Source: an uncultured bacterium
GTDB lineage: Bacteria > Acidobacteriota > HRBIN11 > JAKEFK01
Direction: 5' to 3'
NCBI GenBank assembly: GCA_963777505.1
Contig: CAVZQN010000011.1
Span: 64,001 to 128,000 of the forward strand
DNA: 64,000 bases
The notes beneath the pieces were generated by a model. That model was given only the letters and a program-made list of their open reading frames with translations. It was not told the origin of the DNA and did no database searches. This document shows positions 44,636 through 50,289 of the stretch, piece after piece. Positions within the stretch are counted from its first letter, which is position 1, and every line of letters begins with the position of its first letter. Position numbers and translations under genes: made by a program.

Positions 44636-44880
44636 ATGCAAGAACAACACTAACGAGTAAAGGTCAAATTACACTCCCGAAAGATATCAGGCAGAAGCTT
44701 GAATTGGAGGCGGGCGATCAAATTGATTTTATTATCATGCCTGATGGCGATGTGTTCCTAAGACCTGCAAAATACGACATTCTGAAATTGGAAGGATCGC
44801 TTCAAAGCAAAAAAAGAAAACCGGTTACGATTGAGCAAATGAATGTTGCCGTCCGGGAGAGGATGAAGAAGTTTCGATGA
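44636..44880 (+). CDS. AbrB/MazE/SpoVT-family antitoxin; absent from the ORF track because of a 1-bp shift just after the ATG
   Basis: Hand translation: TTLTSKGQITLPKDIRQKLELEAGDQIDFII...KPVTIEQMNVAVRERMKKFR*. ATGA overlap with the PIN gene. Confidence 0.85.
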
Positions 44881-45265
44881 TAGGGCTGGATACGAATGTC
44901 ATAATCCGGTTTTTAGTTATGGATGATCCCACGCAAGCCAAGAAGGCATCGACACTGGTTCGAACGGCTCTTAAGAATCAAGAGGAATTGTTTATCGATT
45001 CCGTTGTTCTTTGTGAAATGGTTTGGGTACTTGAGGGAGCTATGAATTTGCGAAAGATGAAATCGCGGATGTATTGGAAAAAATAATGACTGAGCTGATC
45101 GCAATACAAGATCGTGATGAAGCCTGGCTGCATTGAATGACTATCGGCAAGGGCGGGCTGACTTTTCGATTATTACATTGGCAGGATCAACAAAAATTCC
45201 GGAGCGATTACACCGTGACTTTTGATCAGGAATTAAAAGAAAGCGACCTTTTTGTTCTGTTATGA
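44877..45265 (+). CDS. vapC: PIN-domain (VapC) toxin with several frameshifts
   Basis: IGLDTNVIIRFL..DD, VLCEMVWVLE, then in shifted frames GRADFFDYYIG...TVTFDQEL...FVLL*. Confidence 0.85.
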
Positions 45266-45809
45266 ACTTTGCGCCTCTGCGGTTAAGGAATAGAACGGCA
45301 CCGCACCCGTTTTTTCTCAGGGTCCACACAAAAACACCAGCATCGACATCCTCTTTTGTTGGATCCAATACCATAGCAATGTGATGCTTATCATTGAAAT
45401 AATGCTCATCAATAAATTGGTCCGCAGAAGATAAAAACACTCCATAACCAGGATGTGTATGAAACCAACCGACAACTTTTTTGTCAGGAAACTGCGCAGT
45501 TAGATCATCGTGTATTTGTGCTTGCGCCTCATTGTTAAATTCGAATGATGCGCGGCGCGAAACACCTTTACGAGCCGGAATAAAATCATGAATCTCAACA
45601 AACCATCTTCGTGAAGCTCGCGCGATCCGTCCTACAAGCACTCCTCCCAATTCATAGCTTGTATCAGATGATGCATATTCGCGGATTCGATCCAGAGCAT
45701 TTTGGACGATGTAAACGACCAGCAGTTTCATCGGGTATTCGCGATCCACTTTTGATGGAAGCCGGCTTCGTTCTGTCTTTTGTTTTATTCGCCGGATCTT
45801 GATTTCCAT
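45141..45809 (-). CDS. JAB/MPN+ (JAMM) metallopeptidase, Rpn11/CSN5-like; real 3' end probably near 45280
   Basis: E53 (YELGGVLVG) and VVGWFHTHPGYGVFLSSAD (H117, H119, S127, D130), AMVLDP. The ORF tail overlaps the opposite-strand VapC, so it is probably an indel artefact. Confidence 0.92.
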   Translation of the reverse strand: MEIKIRRIKQKTERSRLPSKVDREYPMKLLVVYIVQNALDRIREYASSDTSYELGGVLVGRIARASRRWFVEIHDFIPARKGVSRRASFEFNNEAQAQIHDDLTAQFPDKKVVGWFHTHPGYGVFLSSADQFIDEHYFNDKHHIAMVLDPTKEDVDAGVFVWTLRKNGCGAVLFLNRRGAKFITEQKGRFLLIPDQKSRCNRSGIFVDPANVIIEKSARPCR

Positions 45810-46324
45810 TACTTCGCTTCCTTGCTGTCTTTATGAAGAATCTTAATAACCACTTTTCCAGCCTTATCACGAATCGGACGCGAATCGAGAGGAAACATGT
45901 GCAAATTAAAACGTGCCCATTCCGCCGCTTTTTTATCTAATGGCGATTGAAGATTGTATTTAACATAACGTGCCATATCAGCAAGCTCTGATACAAATTC
46001 GGCTAATGACCAGCTTGGCGCCCACTGTCCGCTGTGACAAACAGCTTGTAACTTAATGTTCGGATGAAAGATCGGACTTAACCACGTCACATCTGGCGGT
46101 TGAGATGGATATTGCGCGCCTAATACAATTTGACACTTGTGTTCTTGAATAATCGCTGGCTTTCCCGATCCATCAGACATAATTCCTGGACAAATAAAAC
46201 GGATCTGATATTGATTCGGGGGATTTCCTGATGCCGAAAAATCGATGATCGATGATTCAGTTTTCAGACGCAGCATCTCTTCAAAATCATTTTTCATCCG
46301 GATCTGTCTGCGATTCATTTTCAT
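45809..46324 (-). CDS. Ubiquitin-conjugating enzyme E2 (UBC fold)
   Basis: Helix 1 RRQIRMKNDFEEM, YPSQPPDV.W.SPIFHPNI, catalytic C96, WAPSWSL, YNLQSPLDKKAAEW. Confidence 0.92.
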   Translation of the reverse strand: MKMNRRQIRMKNDFEEMLRLKTESSIIDFSASGNPPNQYQIRFICPGIMSDGSGKPAIIQEHKCQIVLGAQYPSQPPDVTWLSPIFHPNIKLQAVCHSGQWAPSWSLAEFVSELADMARYVKYNLQSPLDKKAAEWARFNLHMFPLDSRPIRDKAGKVVIKILHKDSKEAK

Positions 46325-46369
46325 TTCGTGAAGTAAAACGCCAATTATTTTGTTTGGTGTCTTTATCTT

Positions 46370-46651
46370 TTAGCGGTTGAGTTTTCCGGCAACAAACGTG
46401 GACGTCAACAAAAGTAAATCTCCGTTCTTTGTTGCGTATTCACCAAGTGTTTTGTTTTGCTTTAACTCCTGGCTGGTTCGTTTGTTTGAAAGCTGGTACG
46501 AGATCCGATTACCATCCGGTCCGACAAGAGGAAGCCCAAGTTGTTGCACCAACTGAGGCAACAAATCATCCAGCTTTGCGTCATCCGGCAATTCGACTTC
46601 GTATTCTTGATTTGTATCGGCGCGAACAACTGTAACGGTTATTTGTGACAT
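46370..46651 (-). CDS. Ubiquitin-like (beta-grasp, EsaB/YukD-like) protein
   Basis: ITVTV...YEVELPDD..LDDLL, YQL, L...KTLGEY...NGDLLLL (cf. ubiquitin TLxDY..xxx.L.L). Tail FVAG-KLNR. Confidence 0.88.
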   Translation of the reverse strand: MSQITVTVVRADTNQEYEVELPDDAKLDDLLPQLVQQLGLPLVGPDGNRISYQLSNKRTSQELKQNKTLGEYATKNGDLLLLTSTFVAGKLNR

Positions 46652-46691
46652 AGACGTTCAATGTATCATTTTTTACCGAAGAGTCACAGAG

Positions 46692-47828
46692 TTAATCCAA
46701 GACAAAAAATATTCGATCATTTTGAGTCTCAGCACAATAGATATGCTCCGATGGAAATCCCAATTCCCGAAAACTCTTGTTTCCCCAGCTTTCTGTACCT
46801 TCATAGGCAACAGCAATCTGAGGTTTGAAAACGCCTCCGCAATCGCAAAACGCCGAACCATTGTATAAGGATTGCGTTCCTGTAAATTCTTCATTTTTAC
46901 CGCATTGAATACACATTAAAGATGTCAGCAAATTTCGATCAAAGTCCCAGATCAATCGATCGGCATTCCATTCTTGTTTTGCAGCTTGAAGAACAGTTTG
47001 AATAGGATCACTTTGACGCACTCTCAATTGTTTTATTTCCCCAATCGGATCTGCGGATGCATGCAGTCCACAGTCTTCTGAAATTTCCAATGCTATGTCA
47101 AAGAAAACATCGCTTAAACCGTAAAGGCCAAGCCTTTTACCTGCGGGAACCTGCAATCCATGCAACTGCCTGACTCCAATCTGTACCTGAAGTGCTCCAA
47201 TAATGGATGCAATGGTTGGAGCAGTTGGTACATGTTGCTTAATTTCCGGATCCGTACTTTTTAGACATGAGATCCGTTTTTGAAGTTCCGCTCGATCGAC
47301 TCCGCTCAGAGTGCACTCATAACATGCCGTCGCCGGCGGCATAAATACCGAAACGGATCCATTTAGAGTGTCCAGGCCCCCGTCGATGAAAGGTTTTTTC
47401 AGAAAATATGCATATCGATTCATTGCATATCTCGCTTCACGATTGTCCAAACAGCCCAGGATTAAATCCATTTGCGATAAGAATCCGAATCCGAGATCGT
47501 AACGAACATCAATTCTTAACGGAACAAACGATGAATCGGGATTCATTTCAGAGGCACGAGCGGCAAGAACATCCGTTTTCCATTTTCCAACGTCATCGGC
47601 TCTAAAGAGTGCTGAGCGTGTCAGGTTTGTGGTCTCTATGCGGTCAAAGTCGACAATCCAAACTTTGCCAATTCCAAGCAGCGCAAGGTTTTTGACGACT
47701 TCATTTCCAAGAGCTCCAGCACCGACAACCAGAACGCGTGCGTGCTTTAGTTTTTCCTGATCCCACCAGCGAATTAATTTGAGCCGCTGATATCGATCCG
47801 TTTCAGGATCCGTTAGACGCAGCGTCAT
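46692..47828 (-). CDS. E1-like activating enzyme (ThiF/UBA family) with C-terminal extension
   Basis: VLVVGAGALGNEVVKNLAL, DFDRIETTNLTR, CLDNREAR, ACYEC, putative catalytic C188, CGLH, extra CxxC...CxC zinc ribbon. Confidence 0.93.
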   Translation of the reverse strand: MTLRLTDPETDRYQRLKLIRWWDQEKLKHARVLVVGAGALGNEVVKNLALLGIGKVWIVDFDRIETTNLTRSALFRADDVGKWKTDVLAARASEMNPDSSFVPLRIDVRYDLGFGFLSQMDLILGCLDNREARYAMNRYAYFLKKPFIDGGLDTLNGSVSVFMPPATACYECTLSGVDRAELQKRISCLKSTDPEIKQHVPTAPTIASIIGALQVQIGVRQLHGLQVPAGKRLGLYGLSDVFFDIALEISEDCGLHASADPIGEIKQLRVRQSDPIQTVLQAAKQEWNADRLIWDFDRNLLTSLMCIQCGKNEEFTGTQSLYNGSAFCDCGGVFKPQIAVAYEGTESWGNKSFRELGFPSEHIYCAETQNDRIFFVLD

Positions 47829-48631
47829 AGCTGTGATTCTACCTGCTTTCGGACTTCATGTATTTCAGCTTCCATCGCTGAAAAACGTTGCTTAATTTTT
47901 TCCAAAGTAGCAGTTAGCTCATCCTCGCGCATACGAAAGTAGGTGTGATAATCGCGGCAGCATTCGTGCAGATCATGATCAATTTGAAACAGAAAATCGG
48001 AAAAAAGAATTCGGCCTGCAGGATTCCGTTTGTAAAAACTTTCAACAATTCTGTGGCCAATGAGTACAGTCTCAACCCATTTCAAACGCATGGCTGGACT
48101 TTGCAGTAATTTTGATACTGCGCGAACTTCCGATTGCGTAGAAGGAGACAAGAAAAAGGGAAGTGGTGCACCGGATTTAAATAGAGATGGTTTCGGTTTT
48201 CGAGTCAGCTTTTTTTTCTCATCTGGCTTAGTTTGAATCTCTGCCTCAACTTTTTCTGCAAGCAATACTTCCTTCCAATGCTGCAAAATAGAAGGATCGG
48301 TTTGCTCAATCATGGTCCAGGGTAGAGAGTGAAAAGCTTTCAGGTAGTCGTAATCCTTTCTTCCTGTCAGCGCTTGAAGTATGGACGCTACTTCTCCTAG
48401 ACGTCCCTCTGGAATTGAAAGGATCTTCAAATACGCAAGAGTCGGTTTTATCGCGGAAACTTCTCCAAGACACTGAGGGCAGTACCAATGATGTGCATGA
48501 TAACGATTGTGACAACTCTTGCAAGCAAATACTTGTATTTCACGGACTTCAATTGGAGGAGGTTCAACGGGCGATGTGCGGTTTGTAGAACGGCGTTTAA
48601 TGCGGACTTTAATACGATTCAAAAAACTCAT
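47825..48631 (-). CDS. Uncharacterised zinc-ribbon protein with L7/L12-CTD-like middle domain and helical C-terminus
   Basis: CKSC...CPQC. Start trimmed to MSFLNR to avoid overlap with the macrodomain gene. Its stop overlaps the E1 start (ATGA). Confidence 0.75.
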   Translation of the reverse strand: MSFLNRIKVRIKRRSTNRTSPVEPPPIEVREIQVFACKSCHNRYHAHHWYCPQCLGEVSAIKPTLAYLKILSIPEGRLGEVASILQALTGRKDYDYLKAFHSLPWTMIEQTDPSILQHWKEVLLAEKVEAEIQTKPDEKKKLTRKPKPSLFKSGAPLPFFLSPSTQSEVRAVSKLLQSPAMRLKWVETVLIGHRIVESFYKRNPAGRILFSDFLFQIDHDLHECCRDYHTYFRMREDELTATLEKIKQRFSAMEAEIHEVRKQVESQL

Positions 48632-48638
48632 CGATATT

Positions 48639-49175
48639 TTACGAAGCTGCCTTAAAAATCCGCATTGCAGTTGTATTAAAAATTTTCTCGGCGGACTCAT
48701 CGAACAAACAAAATCGTATTTCTTGAAGCTTCGTTTCACCCTCACAATATTGATGAACGACTTGCAGCATAATTTCTGCACAGCGTTCCATAGGATAGCC
48801 GAATATTCCTGTGCTGATTGCTGGAAAACTAATAGTATGAATTGCTTCACTATCGGCTAAACGTAAGCTGTTTGAAGTGGCATTCCGAAGTTTTTCATCT
48901 TCATCCCCTTCGCCCATTCTTGGTCCAACCGCATGAATGATGTAAGGTGCTTTTAAATCTCCTCCGGTGGTTATGGCAGCACTCCCAACAGGAACGAATC
49001 CGACCCTGTCTGATTCATCCTGAATGATTTTACCCCCTTTACGAACAATGGCGGCTGCAACACCTCCGCCATGCTGAAGTTGAGAATTTGCAGCATTAAC
49101 GATGGCTCCAGTGTCTTCTTCAGTGATATCTGCACGCTTTACTATAATTGTAGTATTACCAGCCTGATAATTCAC
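48639..49175 (-). CDS. Macrodomain protein (MacroD/YmdB-like ADP-ribose hydrolase)
   Basis: ADIT, IVNAANSQLQHGGGVAAAI, IHAVGP, FPAISTGIFGYP. Confidence 0.95.
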   Translation of the reverse strand: MNYQAGNTTIIVKRADITEEDTGAIVNAANSQLQHGGGVAAAIVRKGGKIIQDESDRVGFVPVGSAAITTGGDLKAPYIIHAVGPRMGEGDEDEKLRNATSNSLRLADSEAIHTISFPAISTGIFGYPMERCAEIMLQVVHQYCEGETKLQEIRFCLFDESAEKIFNTTAMRIFKAAS

Positions 49176-49195: not shown

Positions 49196-49885
49196 TTATC
49201 CTAACATAACTCTTTTTTTGCTCTTTTGTAGGTCTTTTGGGGCAATAAGTTGATCCAGCCGCAATCGGATCCGTTCAAGAGCCGTAACAGGAGTTTCCTG
49301 CAGATCCAACGATATGGCAGATTCAGGAATTTGAATTTTAGGATGATCGGATGTGCCTTTCTTTTTATTCAGGATAATGAAATTGGCTCCGTTCAGGATT
49401 TGTTCAGCATTATCTTTCCAACGCGATGGTGGAATGTTGTTTGCTGCAACATAAAACATCAGATCGGGTTTGCATATCGATGTAACTGTGCTTCCTTCCA
49501 TGATGGTCAAGGCATTTTTGGGAAGGTGTTCAATGAGATGTTGAAACGCTTCAGCAAGATATGATTTTCTGGAAATGATCCAAACCACTTCCTTTGCGCC
49601 TGCCGCAGCAAGTCGTTGCGTGTTTTTTCCTGATTGCATCAAAACTGCAGGATCGCGAACAATACGGAAGCGATCGGATAAATCGCAAACTGTACATGGT
49701 GCCCCGCGTGGACACGGAGATGGAATATCGGTGGTGGTTGTAAACTTTACCGCATACACGGGAATATTCTGGTCAGCGAAGTATCGGATTAATTGCTCCG
49801 CGAGCAAAGTTTTTCCAGCGCGGCTCGTTGCACCCGCAACGCTGATGATCCGAATGTCTTTGCGATTGTAGAGTTATTAGCTCAT
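49196..49885 (-). CDS. MobB-like P-loop protein; 5' end disrupted
   Basis: Reading upstream of the called ORF in the same frame gives IISVAGATSRAGKTLLAEQ (Walker A). Also AVK, CPRGAPCTVC, GKNTQRLAAAGA, MEG. ATG at 49885 is followed by AGC TAA TAA. Confidence 0.65.
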
Positions 49886-49998: not shown

Positions 49999-50289
49999 CT
50001 ATTGCTCAGCAATAAATCTGAACCGTTGTCCTGATTCAGCGCCATGAATACTCTTTAACAATCCTTTCAATATGTTTCCACCGATCTGTTTTGCATGTCC
50101 TAGATCAAGGGGAACTTCCTGCGAATCTACAAAGAGCCGCAAGTCATTTTCTTCCAACAAGAATTCGATACGCTTTCCATCAGCGGCCTTTAAGGACTTC
50201 GCTAATGCAAGAATAATGTTTCCAGTCAGGTTTGACATAAATGGATTCAATTTTACCGGCTTGTCGTCAACAGAAATGGAAACATTCAT
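49999..50289 (-). CDS. Small protein made of two repeats resembling the MobB C-terminal extension
   Basis: VSISVDDKPVKLNPFMSNL..NII..L.KSLK and LRLFVDSQEVPL....KQI..NIL..LLKSIH. Confidence 0.6.
   Translation of the reverse strand: MNVSISVDDKPVKLNPFMSNLTGNIILALAKSLKAADGKRIEFLLEENDLRLFVDSQEVPLDLGHAKQIGGNILKGLLKSIHGAESGQRFRFIAEQ

Follow-up and report, generated by a model that had tools for sequence, protein, structure and literature searches.

The Caldiarchaeum/Asgard-type operon, in which ubiquitin is encoded together with an E1-like enzyme, an E2-like enzyme, a small RING finger protein and an Rpn11-like JAMM protease, has been reconstituted biochemically, as given in the available part of PMC5654768; the available text of PMC4197634 reports related operons in Actinobacteria, Planctomycetes and Acidobacteria, where they are sporadic and often missing from close relatives. 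An operon of this kind lies in a 64,000-nucleotide stretch of DNA (the window) from an uncultured bacterium of the Acidobacteriota (GTDB lineage HRBIN11; JAKEFK01; assembly GCA_963777505.1, contig CAVZQN010000011.1, positions 64,001 to 128,000 of the forward strand). It encodes an E1 activating enzyme, a ubiquitin-like protein (Ubl), an E2 conjugating enzyme and a JAB-domain protease, preceded by a macrodomain protein (macro) and a zinc-ribbon protein (ZnR). Held with some reserve, the favored reading is that these genes specify a functional thioester-based Ubl conjugation system, chromosomally fixed in one uncultured acidobacterial family and used for endogenous regulatory or quality-control tagging, not as a mobile anti-phage system.

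Among the described systems, the classical-E2 prokaryotic operons, those of Caldiarchaeum and those reported for Planctomycetes and Acidobacteria, fit best. Compared by description and PDB matches, and not by direct sequence comparison, the window operon shares with the Caldiarchaeum/Asgard ones a separate small E1, a classical E2, a putative single-domain Ubl precursor and an Rpn11-like JAMM protease to trim it, all in a compact operon; it differs from them in being without a RING (srfp) E3, in having a YukD-like Ubl that ends in Ala-Gly (AG) instead of a ubiquitin-family modifier ending in GG, and in adding macro, ZnR and a small upstream gene, up2. Regarding the bacterial operons, as far as PMC4197634 describes them in its available part, the window operon comes from one of the same phyla and is of the same classical-E2 kind; unlike those sporadic operons, it is present in 7/7 family genomes at one site. 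The first-pass annotation had supposed that the macrodomain and zinc-ribbon configuration might be an undescribed subtype, and this holds in part: the configuration is conserved, and its pairing with such operons was found in no paper of the literature searched, which left aside the supplementary tables of related surveys, whereas the classical-E2 kind itself is already in print (PMC4197634, available part). What is new, then, is the vertical, family-wide conservation and the conserved macro-ZnR-E1 module; classical-E2 ubiquitin-like operons in bacteria were already known.

As for the Bil systems of types I and II (BilA-D), they too work by thioester chemistry, encode Ubl, E2, JAB and E1 each in a gene of its own, and have no E3 gene; unlike the window E1, which is one ThiF stretch in a protein of 378 aa, the BilD-type E1 has an IAD-AAD-CYS arrangement. 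In PADLOC, no BilB or BilC model matched, and BilA matched the Ubl only at 0.015 over 37 residues. The Bil E2 presumably corresponds to class 6d of Iyer et al. 2006. The class 6d E2 lacks the HPN histidine according to the available part of that work (PMC1779556), whereas the window E2 keeps it. The Bub (6E/DUF6527) systems, in the available part of their description (10.1101/2024.11.21.623953), work through oxyester intermediates with an E1 tyrosine and an E2 serine and no catalytic cysteine; their types I and II consist of fusions, either Ubl-E2 with JAB-E1 or E2-E1, and of the serine protease DUF6527. The window shares with Bub that E1, E2, Ubl and peptidase are encoded together; unlike Bub, its genes are separate, its E1 Cys188 and E2 Cys96 are conserved, and no DUF6527/PF20137 match appeared in the Pfam scans of the operon and flanking genes. 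Those scans covered JAB through up2, eight genes on the minus strand, and eight flanking genes, that is, 16 window genes between 42267 and 54637.

Type II systems for anti-phage signaling through cyclic oligonucleotides (CBASS, with Cap2/Cap3) differ from the window in their E2-E1 fusion and in their CD-NTase, which was found in neither the Pfam nor the PADLOC scans. The matches of E1 and E2 to eukaryotic enzymes are stronger than those to Bil or CBASS models, and no PADLOC model matches E2, ZnR, macro or up2. Judged by architecture and models, Bil, Bub and type II CBASS are excluded; the distinctness from the characterized Bil and Bub types, on which the first-pass annotation had made its claim of novelty depend, is thereby upheld. 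In the archaeal and bacterial SAMP/UbaA/JAMM and TtuB/TtuC systems, which have no known E2, a single-domain E1 like MoeB goes with a beta-grasp modifier that ends in Gly and with a JAMM protease; unlike them, the window operon has a conserved E2 with an intact catalytic motif.

The predicted conjugation enzymes and modifier

The six open reading frames (ORFs) of the operon are co-oriented on the minus strand and span 45141-49175 in the order macro, ZnR, E1, Ubl, E2 and JAB. Read from the sequence, a gap of 7 bp separates macro from ZnR, the ZnR stop and the E1 start share an ATGA overlap, gaps of 40 and 45 bp follow between E1 and Ubl and between Ubl and E2, and the E2 stop and the JAB start share a TAATG overlap. 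The first-pass annotation had given this arrangement exactly, and the catalytic motifs that it listed for E1, E2 and JAB all stand at the named residues of the translations; it missed the two genes upstream, up2 and up1, as well as the vertical inheritance of the system, and its operon end at 45280 has to be moved, given that the assembled JAB frame runs to 45141.

E1 (46692-47828, minus strand, 378 aa; Pfam ThiF 6.5e-51) is made of one ThiF stretch (residues 16-227 in Pfam) and a Cys-rich C-terminal domain. It carries the GAGALGNE motif, D60-x-D62-x-I-x3-N-L-x-R71, C169-YE-C172 and C188 (codon 47265-47267); the latter sits in a crossover loop that is short, like that of MoeB or Uba5, and the inserted Cys domain is absent. 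In an alignment of 12 sequences, three of them 35-37% identical, the invariant residues comprise G36-A-G-A-L-G-N-E43, D60, D62, N68, R71, C169, C172 and C188, and in the C-terminal part C253, H256, C306, C309, C328 and C330. The best PDB match was the active adenylation domain of UBA7/UBA1 (2.5e-30), with MoeB at 1.2e-22 and Cap2 at 4e-8; the NCBIfam ThiF (1.6e-36) and MoeB (1.3e-34) models both stayed far under their cut-offs, and the model of the SAMP-activating E1 (4.1e-25) was also under its cut-off. In PADLOC, CBASS E1-E2 models reached up to 1.3e-20 and BilD 1.5e-7 over residues 31-141 (111 residues), and these matches are confined to the shared Rossmann part. With its adenylation domain and catalytic cysteine, E1 is, by its motifs, a stand-alone activating enzyme. 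The family genomes also have a second, separate E1-like gene (33-36% identity), which could be the one that serves cofactor synthesis.

The E2 (45809-46324, minus strand, 171 aa) belongs to Pfam UQ_con (1.4e-09), with a score of 38.1 bits against a cut-off of 27, and has the motifs Y72-P73..P76-P77 and H87-P-N89 and the catalytic C96 (codon 46037-46039). Across 20 sequences, with identities as low as 36%, H87, N89, C96, W101, Y72-P73 and P77 do not vary. In the PDB, all of the best 60 matches were E2 or E2-derived entries, the best being eukaryotic (Ubc13/Rad6, 2e-6); no PADLOC model matched even at E<=10, and no homologue occurred among 50,697 phage records. UQ_con occurs once in the genome of the window, in this protein, which by its fold, HPN motif and catalytic cysteine reads as a classical E2.

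The JAB protein (45141-45809, minus strand, 222 aa as assembled; Pfam JAB 3.4e-10, Prok-JAB 1.5e-07) has an intact motif of E53 and H117-x-H119-x7-S127-x2-D130, and in the PDB it matched Rpn11 (3.3e-9), the Rpn11-like entry 6fjv (4.8e-9), which we take to be a Caldiarchaeum protein, and CSN5 (about 1e-5); by sequence it is an Rpn11-like JAMM protease, with predicted roles in the maturation of the Ubl precursor and in deconjugation. Its relatives end in ...RVPxFxx at about 176 aa, and the window protein follows them only if two frame changes are made (frame 0, 2, 1) around 45290-45325, beside an A6 run and outside the catalytic core. The tail as assembled is probably an assembly indel artifact or a recent frameshift.

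Finally, the Ubl (46370-46651, minus strand, 93 aa) matches Pfam YukD (2.8e-12) and has a predicted beta-grasp fold; it gave zero matches to PF00240 in Pfam even at E<=10 and zero among PDB sequences, and so is YukD-like by sequence, not ubiquitin-family, with a C-terminus in AG, not GG. It is 90-96% identical across the seven family genomes up to ...LLLLTSTFVAG, and past ...VAG the tails diverge, with 1-18 aa that are unrelated between the genomes; the copy on metagenome contig L062 stops directly after AG, at 89 aa. Because conservation ends at ...VAG and is followed by a variable tail of 0-18 aa, the Ubl is best read as a precursor trimmed to a C-terminal glycine: the predicted mature form comprises residues 1-89 with an Ala-Gly end (coding 46385-46651), and the KLNR tail (46373-46384) is predicted to be cut off, for which the co-encoded Rpn11-like JAB is the obvious candidate protease. 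The YukD-like Ubl of a related acidobacterial operon (L029) likewise ends in ...ITAG.

The eukaryotic affinity that the first-pass annotation had proposed is thus borne out for part of the set. The best PDB relatives of the enzymes are eukaryotic (UBA7/UBA1, Ubc13/Rad6 and Rpn11), although E1 is not Uba2/Uba3-like in architecture; and a eukaryote-like ubiquitin set can be spoken of for E1, E2 and JAB, but not, going by sequence, for the Ubl, which is YukD-like and has an AG end.

The macrodomain, the zinc-ribbon protein and the genes upstream

The macro gene (48639-49175, minus strand, 178 aa, GTG start; Pfam Macro 1.2e-37) gave NCBIfam matches to ADP-ribose-binding and O-acetyl-ADP-ribose deacetylase models of up to 2.8e-54, all under the curated cut-offs; among PDB entries, it matched the PARP14 macrodomain (1.4e-36), MacroD1 (1.9e-28) and the O-acetyl-ADP-ribose deacetylase entries 5cb3/5cb5 (5e-29 to 9e-29). 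MacroD-type proteins are recognized by the motifs N-x6-GG-[VLI] and G-[IVA]-[FY]-G, and the window protein carries NAANSQLQHGGGV and GIFGYP. Within the family, NAANSxLxHGGGVA is kept in five of the seven sequences, with single substitutions in genomes G071 (HGAGVA) and G155 (NAANN), and STGIFGYP is kept in all seven. The protein is predicted to be a MacroD-type ADP-ribose binder or hydrolase; no NCBIfam equivalog cut-off was reached.

ZnR (47825-48631, minus strand, 268 aa, ATG at 48631) starts with a basic tail, which is followed by a C4 zinc ribbon (C37, C40, C51, C54), a small alpha/beta domain at residues 66-133 and a C-terminal part in which a Lys-rich linker is followed by a helical bundle (AlphaFold2 model, mean predicted local distance difference test (pLDDT) 88.4). 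A 341-aa GTG ORF (47825-48850) was considered as the ZnR gene and rejected; it overlaps macro, and the homologues begin at the ATG at 48631. The invariant residues are C37, C40, N42, Y44, C51, P52, Q53, C54, W119, P158, R207, F210 and D212, and one zinc site is assigned because only four cysteines are invariant. No Pfam, NCBIfam or PADLOC family was found for it; among 1.84 billion proteins it has only 27 representatives, and among 401 genomes of the phylum its full-length matches are confined to its own family (seven genomes). Foldseek gave no significant match of the protein in the PDB. In Foldseek, residues 66-133 weakly resemble ClpS and the C-terminal domain of L7/L12 (TM by target of 0.73-0.82, with E about 1-5 and probability 0.28-0.89), which serves as a lead only; no ClpS or L7/L12 sequence match was found in Pfam or the PDB. 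A ZnR profile compared with PDB sequences found the C-terminus of LapB, at the level of the zinc ribbon only (E 0.011); a match to a WD-repeat design in the same search was spurious.

A RING was not detected in ZnR, either in Pfam at E<=10 or as a fold match in Foldseek, and in the operon and the eight flanking genes no gene reads as a small RING-finger E3. More broadly, the Pfam and PADLOC scans of these genes found no RING, CD-NTase or known effector, in agreement with what the first-pass annotation had stated of the adjacent genes. ZnR is a candidate for an adaptor or E3-like factor, or else for an E1 cofactor. In P0075, a protein of 432 aa, about the first 220 residues of a ZnR homologue run on into the N-terminus of an E1; the fusion may be natural, or it may come from frameshifted reading through the overlapping genes.

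Upstream of macro, the conserved block goes on with two genes that are co-oriented with it and syntenic in relatives. The distal one, up2 (49999-50289, minus strand), encodes a small alpha/beta protein of 96 aa that belongs to no family (no match in Pfam, PADLOC or NCBIfam), with an AlphaFold2 model of pLDDT 90.6 and no PDB fold match (Foldseek; best TM below 0.36). It is syntenic in 7/7 family genomes, immediately precedes macro in genus g2, where the operon is split as described below, and abuts macro or overlaps it by 1 nt on contigs L061 and L065.

The proximal gene, up1 (49196-49807, minus strand), is a MobB-like P-loop gene with a CxxxxxCxxC motif; it had no Pfam match at E<=0.01 and a weak MobB match at E=0.1, and MobB is found in 13% of one Atlas cluster (score 0.89). 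A Walker A motif, GATSRAGKT, stands at the N-terminus of its orthologues in G041 and G144. The window encodes the Walker A in frame upstream of the TTG (49808-49870, minus), and no ATG, GTG or TTG follows the preceding stop, which points either to an unusual start codon or to an assembly error. Genus g2, like contigs L061, L065 and L066, has no up1 between up2 and macro; the gene is probably an optional neighbor, not a core component.

Remote homologues of up2 also occur outside the family. In genome G397, the gene for one of them, of 100 aa, overlaps a canonical MobB-like P-loop gene (L085, 1002-1788), which suggests a pairing of up2 with MobB-like proteins that does not depend on the Ubl system. 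The membership of up2 in that system is uncertain because of this remote homologue next to a MobB gene, and up2 and up1 may be a separate neighboring module, given that up1 is itself MobB-like. It is also possible that up2 is an accessory gene that travels with macro, ZnR and E1.

Distribution, evolutionary rates and genomic setting

Among 401 sampled genomes of the phylum, 24 had a match to the E2. Seven of these make up the family of the window, where the E2 is present in 7/7 species-level genomes and 3/3 genera, and where the six other sequences are 73-91% identical to that of the window; the other 17 matches are 26-36% identical and stand in different architectures. At the level of the class, the E2 occurs in 7/13 genomes, and it is found in 0/6 genomes of two sister families (87-95% complete). 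The close homologues of E2 and E1 that bear organism names are labeled Acidobacteriota.

In three of the family genomes, G041, G108 and G144, the whole array up2-up1-macro-ZnR-E1-Ubl-E2-JAB adjoins nuoF-icd, as in the window, and the nuoF-icd site is common to these three and to G071 and G155. Unrelated membrane-protein ORFs are inserted exactly at the E1/Ubl junction in two of them, one of 227 aa in G041 (L024, 7640-8323) and one of 527 aa in G144 (L028, 9287-10870). The unit is split at the same junction in genus g2 (G071, G096, G155), with Ubl-E2-JAB on one contig, beside nuoF-icd in G071 and G155, and up2-macro-ZnR-E1 on another, where the ZnR stop still touches the E1 start. This split counts as one evolutionary event, not three; it shows that E1 keeps macro, ZnR and up2 with it and that the system consists of two modules. 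In G155 (73% complete, 20 contigs), the matches of JAB, ZnR and E1 each fall in two frames (L027 and L056), and indel errors, not pseudogenes, are suspected.

The gene-neighborhood survey that the first-pass annotation had proposed showed that the array recurs, in 7/7 family genomes and on 12/12 metagenome contigs retrieved through ZnR, and for this reason it is regarded as beyond chance. On the metagenome contigs, macro is directly upstream of ZnR in 11/11 assessable cases, E1 is downstream in 7/7 assessable cases, and Ubl-E2-JAB are seen on both contigs that are long enough.

Regarding the evolutionary rates, the nonsynonymous divergence (dN) was measured against four relatives; the synonymous one (dS) was saturated, and for this reason dN/dS could not be computed. 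The values were 0.05-0.09 for Ubl, 0.09-0.17 for NuoF, 0.11-0.18 for Icd, 0.06-0.18 for E2, 0.12-0.25 for macro, 0.16-0.28 for E1, 0.11-0.32 for JAB, 0.23-0.33 for up1, 0.25-0.47 for up2 and 0.18-0.58 for ZnR. The slowest-evolving gene of the neighborhood is thus the Ubl, slower than NuoF, and the fastest is ZnR, at 38-71% identity; the low dN with saturated dS across three genera points to long-term purifying selection.

The operon sits among housekeeping genes, as had been proposed: an isocitrate/isopropylmalate dehydrogenase gene (icd) and NuoF flank it, along with a phospholipase C-like gene and a two-component pair. Its GC content is 0.44, flat, and the same as in the flanks. Promoter-like sites are not enriched (11 vs 14.5 in shuffles). 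Terminator-like sites number 14 vs 6.6 in shuffles; the minus-strand ones within the operon fall inside coding sequence, with zero in the intergenic gaps inside it. A survey of sequencing runs returned two soil DNA runs with small shares (0.05-0.06) and listed no RNA runs. Between JAB and nuoF there is a VapBC-like remnant (44704-45086, plus strand), made of a 58-aa antitoxin-like ORF that overlaps a truncated 69-aa PIN ORF (PIN 6.7e-6, profile positions 3-47 of 120 covered); it is common to the window and G041 and was not found in G108 or G144.

Two other acidobacterial loci carry related genes. In G064 (L030, 3977-9704), a weak Prok-RING_1-like gene (E 2e-4, under cut-off) overlaps the start of an E1 gene, followed by genes for a fusion of TIR and a YukD-like Ubl, a 228-aa protein and a 301-aa protein with a C-terminal UQ_con domain; a 398-aa ORF of the same locus has no Pfam family and resembles the window JAB in tblastn (26% identity, E 6e-9). 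This locus looks like a conflict-type relative. The RING-like gene occupies the same slot at the E1 start as ZnR, which is a positional analogy only; there is no detectable homology between the two proteins (hhalign probability 0.95%). In the high-GC genome G051 (L029, 6939-14788), the YukD-like Ubl mentioned above is accompanied by an E1 37% identical to that of the window, a JAB of 473 aa, a protein with an FHA domain and another, of 617 aa, that carries a UQ_con domain.

Proposed pathway and competing explanations

The following pathway can be drawn from the motifs and alignments. The Ubl would be made as a precursor, from which JAB would remove the variable tail after Ala88-Gly89, as the alignment suggests; E1 would adenylate Gly89 and take the Ubl onto Cys188 in the crossover loop; the Ubl would then pass to Cys96 of E2 and from there to lysines of target proteins, and JAB may also reverse the conjugation. 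The two modules would be [up2-(up1)-macro-ZnR-E1] and [Ubl-E2-JAB], with no RING E3. ZnR, translationally coupled to E1, is the strongest candidate for a role in targeting or as an adaptor, and macro would connect the pathway with ADP-ribose, whether it reads ADP-ribosyl marks on targets, takes them off, or acts on components of the pathway. A more specific proposal is that macro and ZnR together stand in for the missing E3 or reader in a housekeeping function, and not in phage defense: they would direct the Ubl to host proteins that are ADP-ribosylated or otherwise marked, or Ubl-ADP-ribose linkages would be made or erased. This is a speculative idea to which little probability is given. In eukaryotes, crosstalk between ubiquitin and ADP-ribose is exemplified by PARP9/DTX3L and RNF146.

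An endogenous role is favored over mobile defense because the system is present in 7/7 family genomes at the same site and the Ubl evolves more slowly than NuoF; we infer it from distribution and rates in just seven related metagenome-assembled genomes (MAGs). Several observations weigh against it. The seven species-level MAGs are a small sample, not mutually independent, and the nearest E1 clade outside the family belongs to Planctomycetota (43-48% identity; 7/9 named rows), so that the system was probably acquired horizontally before its fixation. Every bacterial E1-E2-Ubl-JAB operon characterized by experiment, whether Bil, Bub or type II CBASS, acts against phages, according to the available parts of the two reports that treat them (10.1101/2024.11.21.623953; 10.1101/2024.11.21.623966), and the related acidobacterial E1/E2/JAB loci contain TIR (L030) and FHA (L029) domains, which are typical of conflict systems. 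A homologous E1-Ubl-Ubl-E2-JAB operon is located on the mobilizable plasmid pCRI9333.03 of Crinalium epipsammum PCC 9333 (NC_019754.1; L075, 6254-9731), where a gene for a type IV coupling protein adjoins it; its E1 is 39% identical to that of the window over 307 residues, the crossover Cys included, its E2 30% and its Ubl 29%. It encodes paralogous Ubls of 82 and 85 aa, only one of them ending in GGY, and a JAB of 327 aa. The gene order E1-Ubl-E2-JAB is that of the window but for the second Ubl; unlike the window operon, this one is plasmid-borne, is known from annotation only and has no macro, ZnR or up2.

These observations are what an anti-phage or conflict system working like Bil would explain, in which the Ubl is placed onto invader proteins, macro counters or senses phage ADP-ribosylation, and the retention in a small family is incidental. 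The fast evolution of ZnR, which would befit a component whose target keeps changing, the matches of E1 to CBASS and BilD models, and the VapBC-like remnant next to JAB would go with it. However, the presence in every genome of the family at one syntenic site by nuoF-icd contrasts with the sparse, sporadic occurrence of Bil, Bub and CBASS; Ubl and E2 evolve as slowly as the flanking housekeeping genes or more slowly; no integrase or further defense gene was seen in the Pfam scans of the flanks; and the PADLOC record is poor, the E1 matches being Rossmann-only, the Ubl reaching BilA just marginally, and E2, ZnR, macro and up2 being without any. Defense is therefore judged the less likely role, and it keeps an appreciable part of the probability because the characterized bacterial relatives are all defensive and because of the TIR and FHA domains in the related loci. 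A sulfur-carrier or cofactor pathway (MoaD/ThiS-, SAMP- or TtuB-like), with E1 acting like MoeB to thiocarboxylate the Ubl and conjugation secondary or absent, would suit the MoeB/ThiF architecture of E1 (one domain, CxxC, crossover-loop Cys) and its NCBIfam ThiF and MoeB matches far below the cut-offs, the Gly-terminal Ubl, and the MobB-like up1, which points to molybdenum cofactor work, together with the up2 homologue beside a MobB gene elsewhere. It is nonetheless quite improbable: the classical E2 is conserved, slow-evolving and intact in its HPN and catalytic Cys, which excludes plain ThiF/MoeB chemistry as had been argued from the start, the Ubl comes as a precursor whose tail varies and has an Rpn11-like JAB for a partner, rhodanese domain, MoaE and ThiG were not found in the scanned window genes, the second E1-like gene could take care of cofactor synthesis, and up1 is missing from the arrangement of genus g2.

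A third view takes the operon for the decaying remnant of a once-mobile system that no longer works. To it the JAB protein lends some color, being out of frame with its homologues beyond about residue 165, with its last roughly 50 codons unrelated, a further point against a functional system; the lack of an ordinary start codon before the P-loop of up1, the neighboring PIN gene truncated to 69 aa and the split matches of ZnR, E1 and JAB in G155 agree with it. Yet all the catalytic motifs are intact, the low dN with saturated dS across three genera speaks of long-term purifying selection, and the frame problems lie at homopolymer runs in MAGs with few, long contigs, where assembly indels are suspected; decay is given hardly any weight.

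In conclusion, if the system is a functional conjugation pathway of endogenous use, it could show what Ubl tagging does for the physiology of the bacterium itself. The bacterial E1-E2-Ubl systems investigated to date are all mobile modules against phages, of sporadic occurrence. Here a modifier that is conserved more strongly than a respiratory-chain subunit (NuoF) comes with a eukaryote-type E2 and is inherited vertically by a whole family, and it would offer a minimal, RING-free cascade for study. Were macro and ZnR indeed to act as the E3 or reader, prokaryotes would have an equivalent of the crosstalk that links ubiquitin with ADP-ribose in eukaryotes. In any case, with a conserved macrodomain partner at hand, it can be tested directly whether prokaryotes couple Ubl conjugation to ADP-ribosylation, and the components are all small, so that the pathway could be reconstituted in vitro although its host, a soil bacterium, is uncultured.

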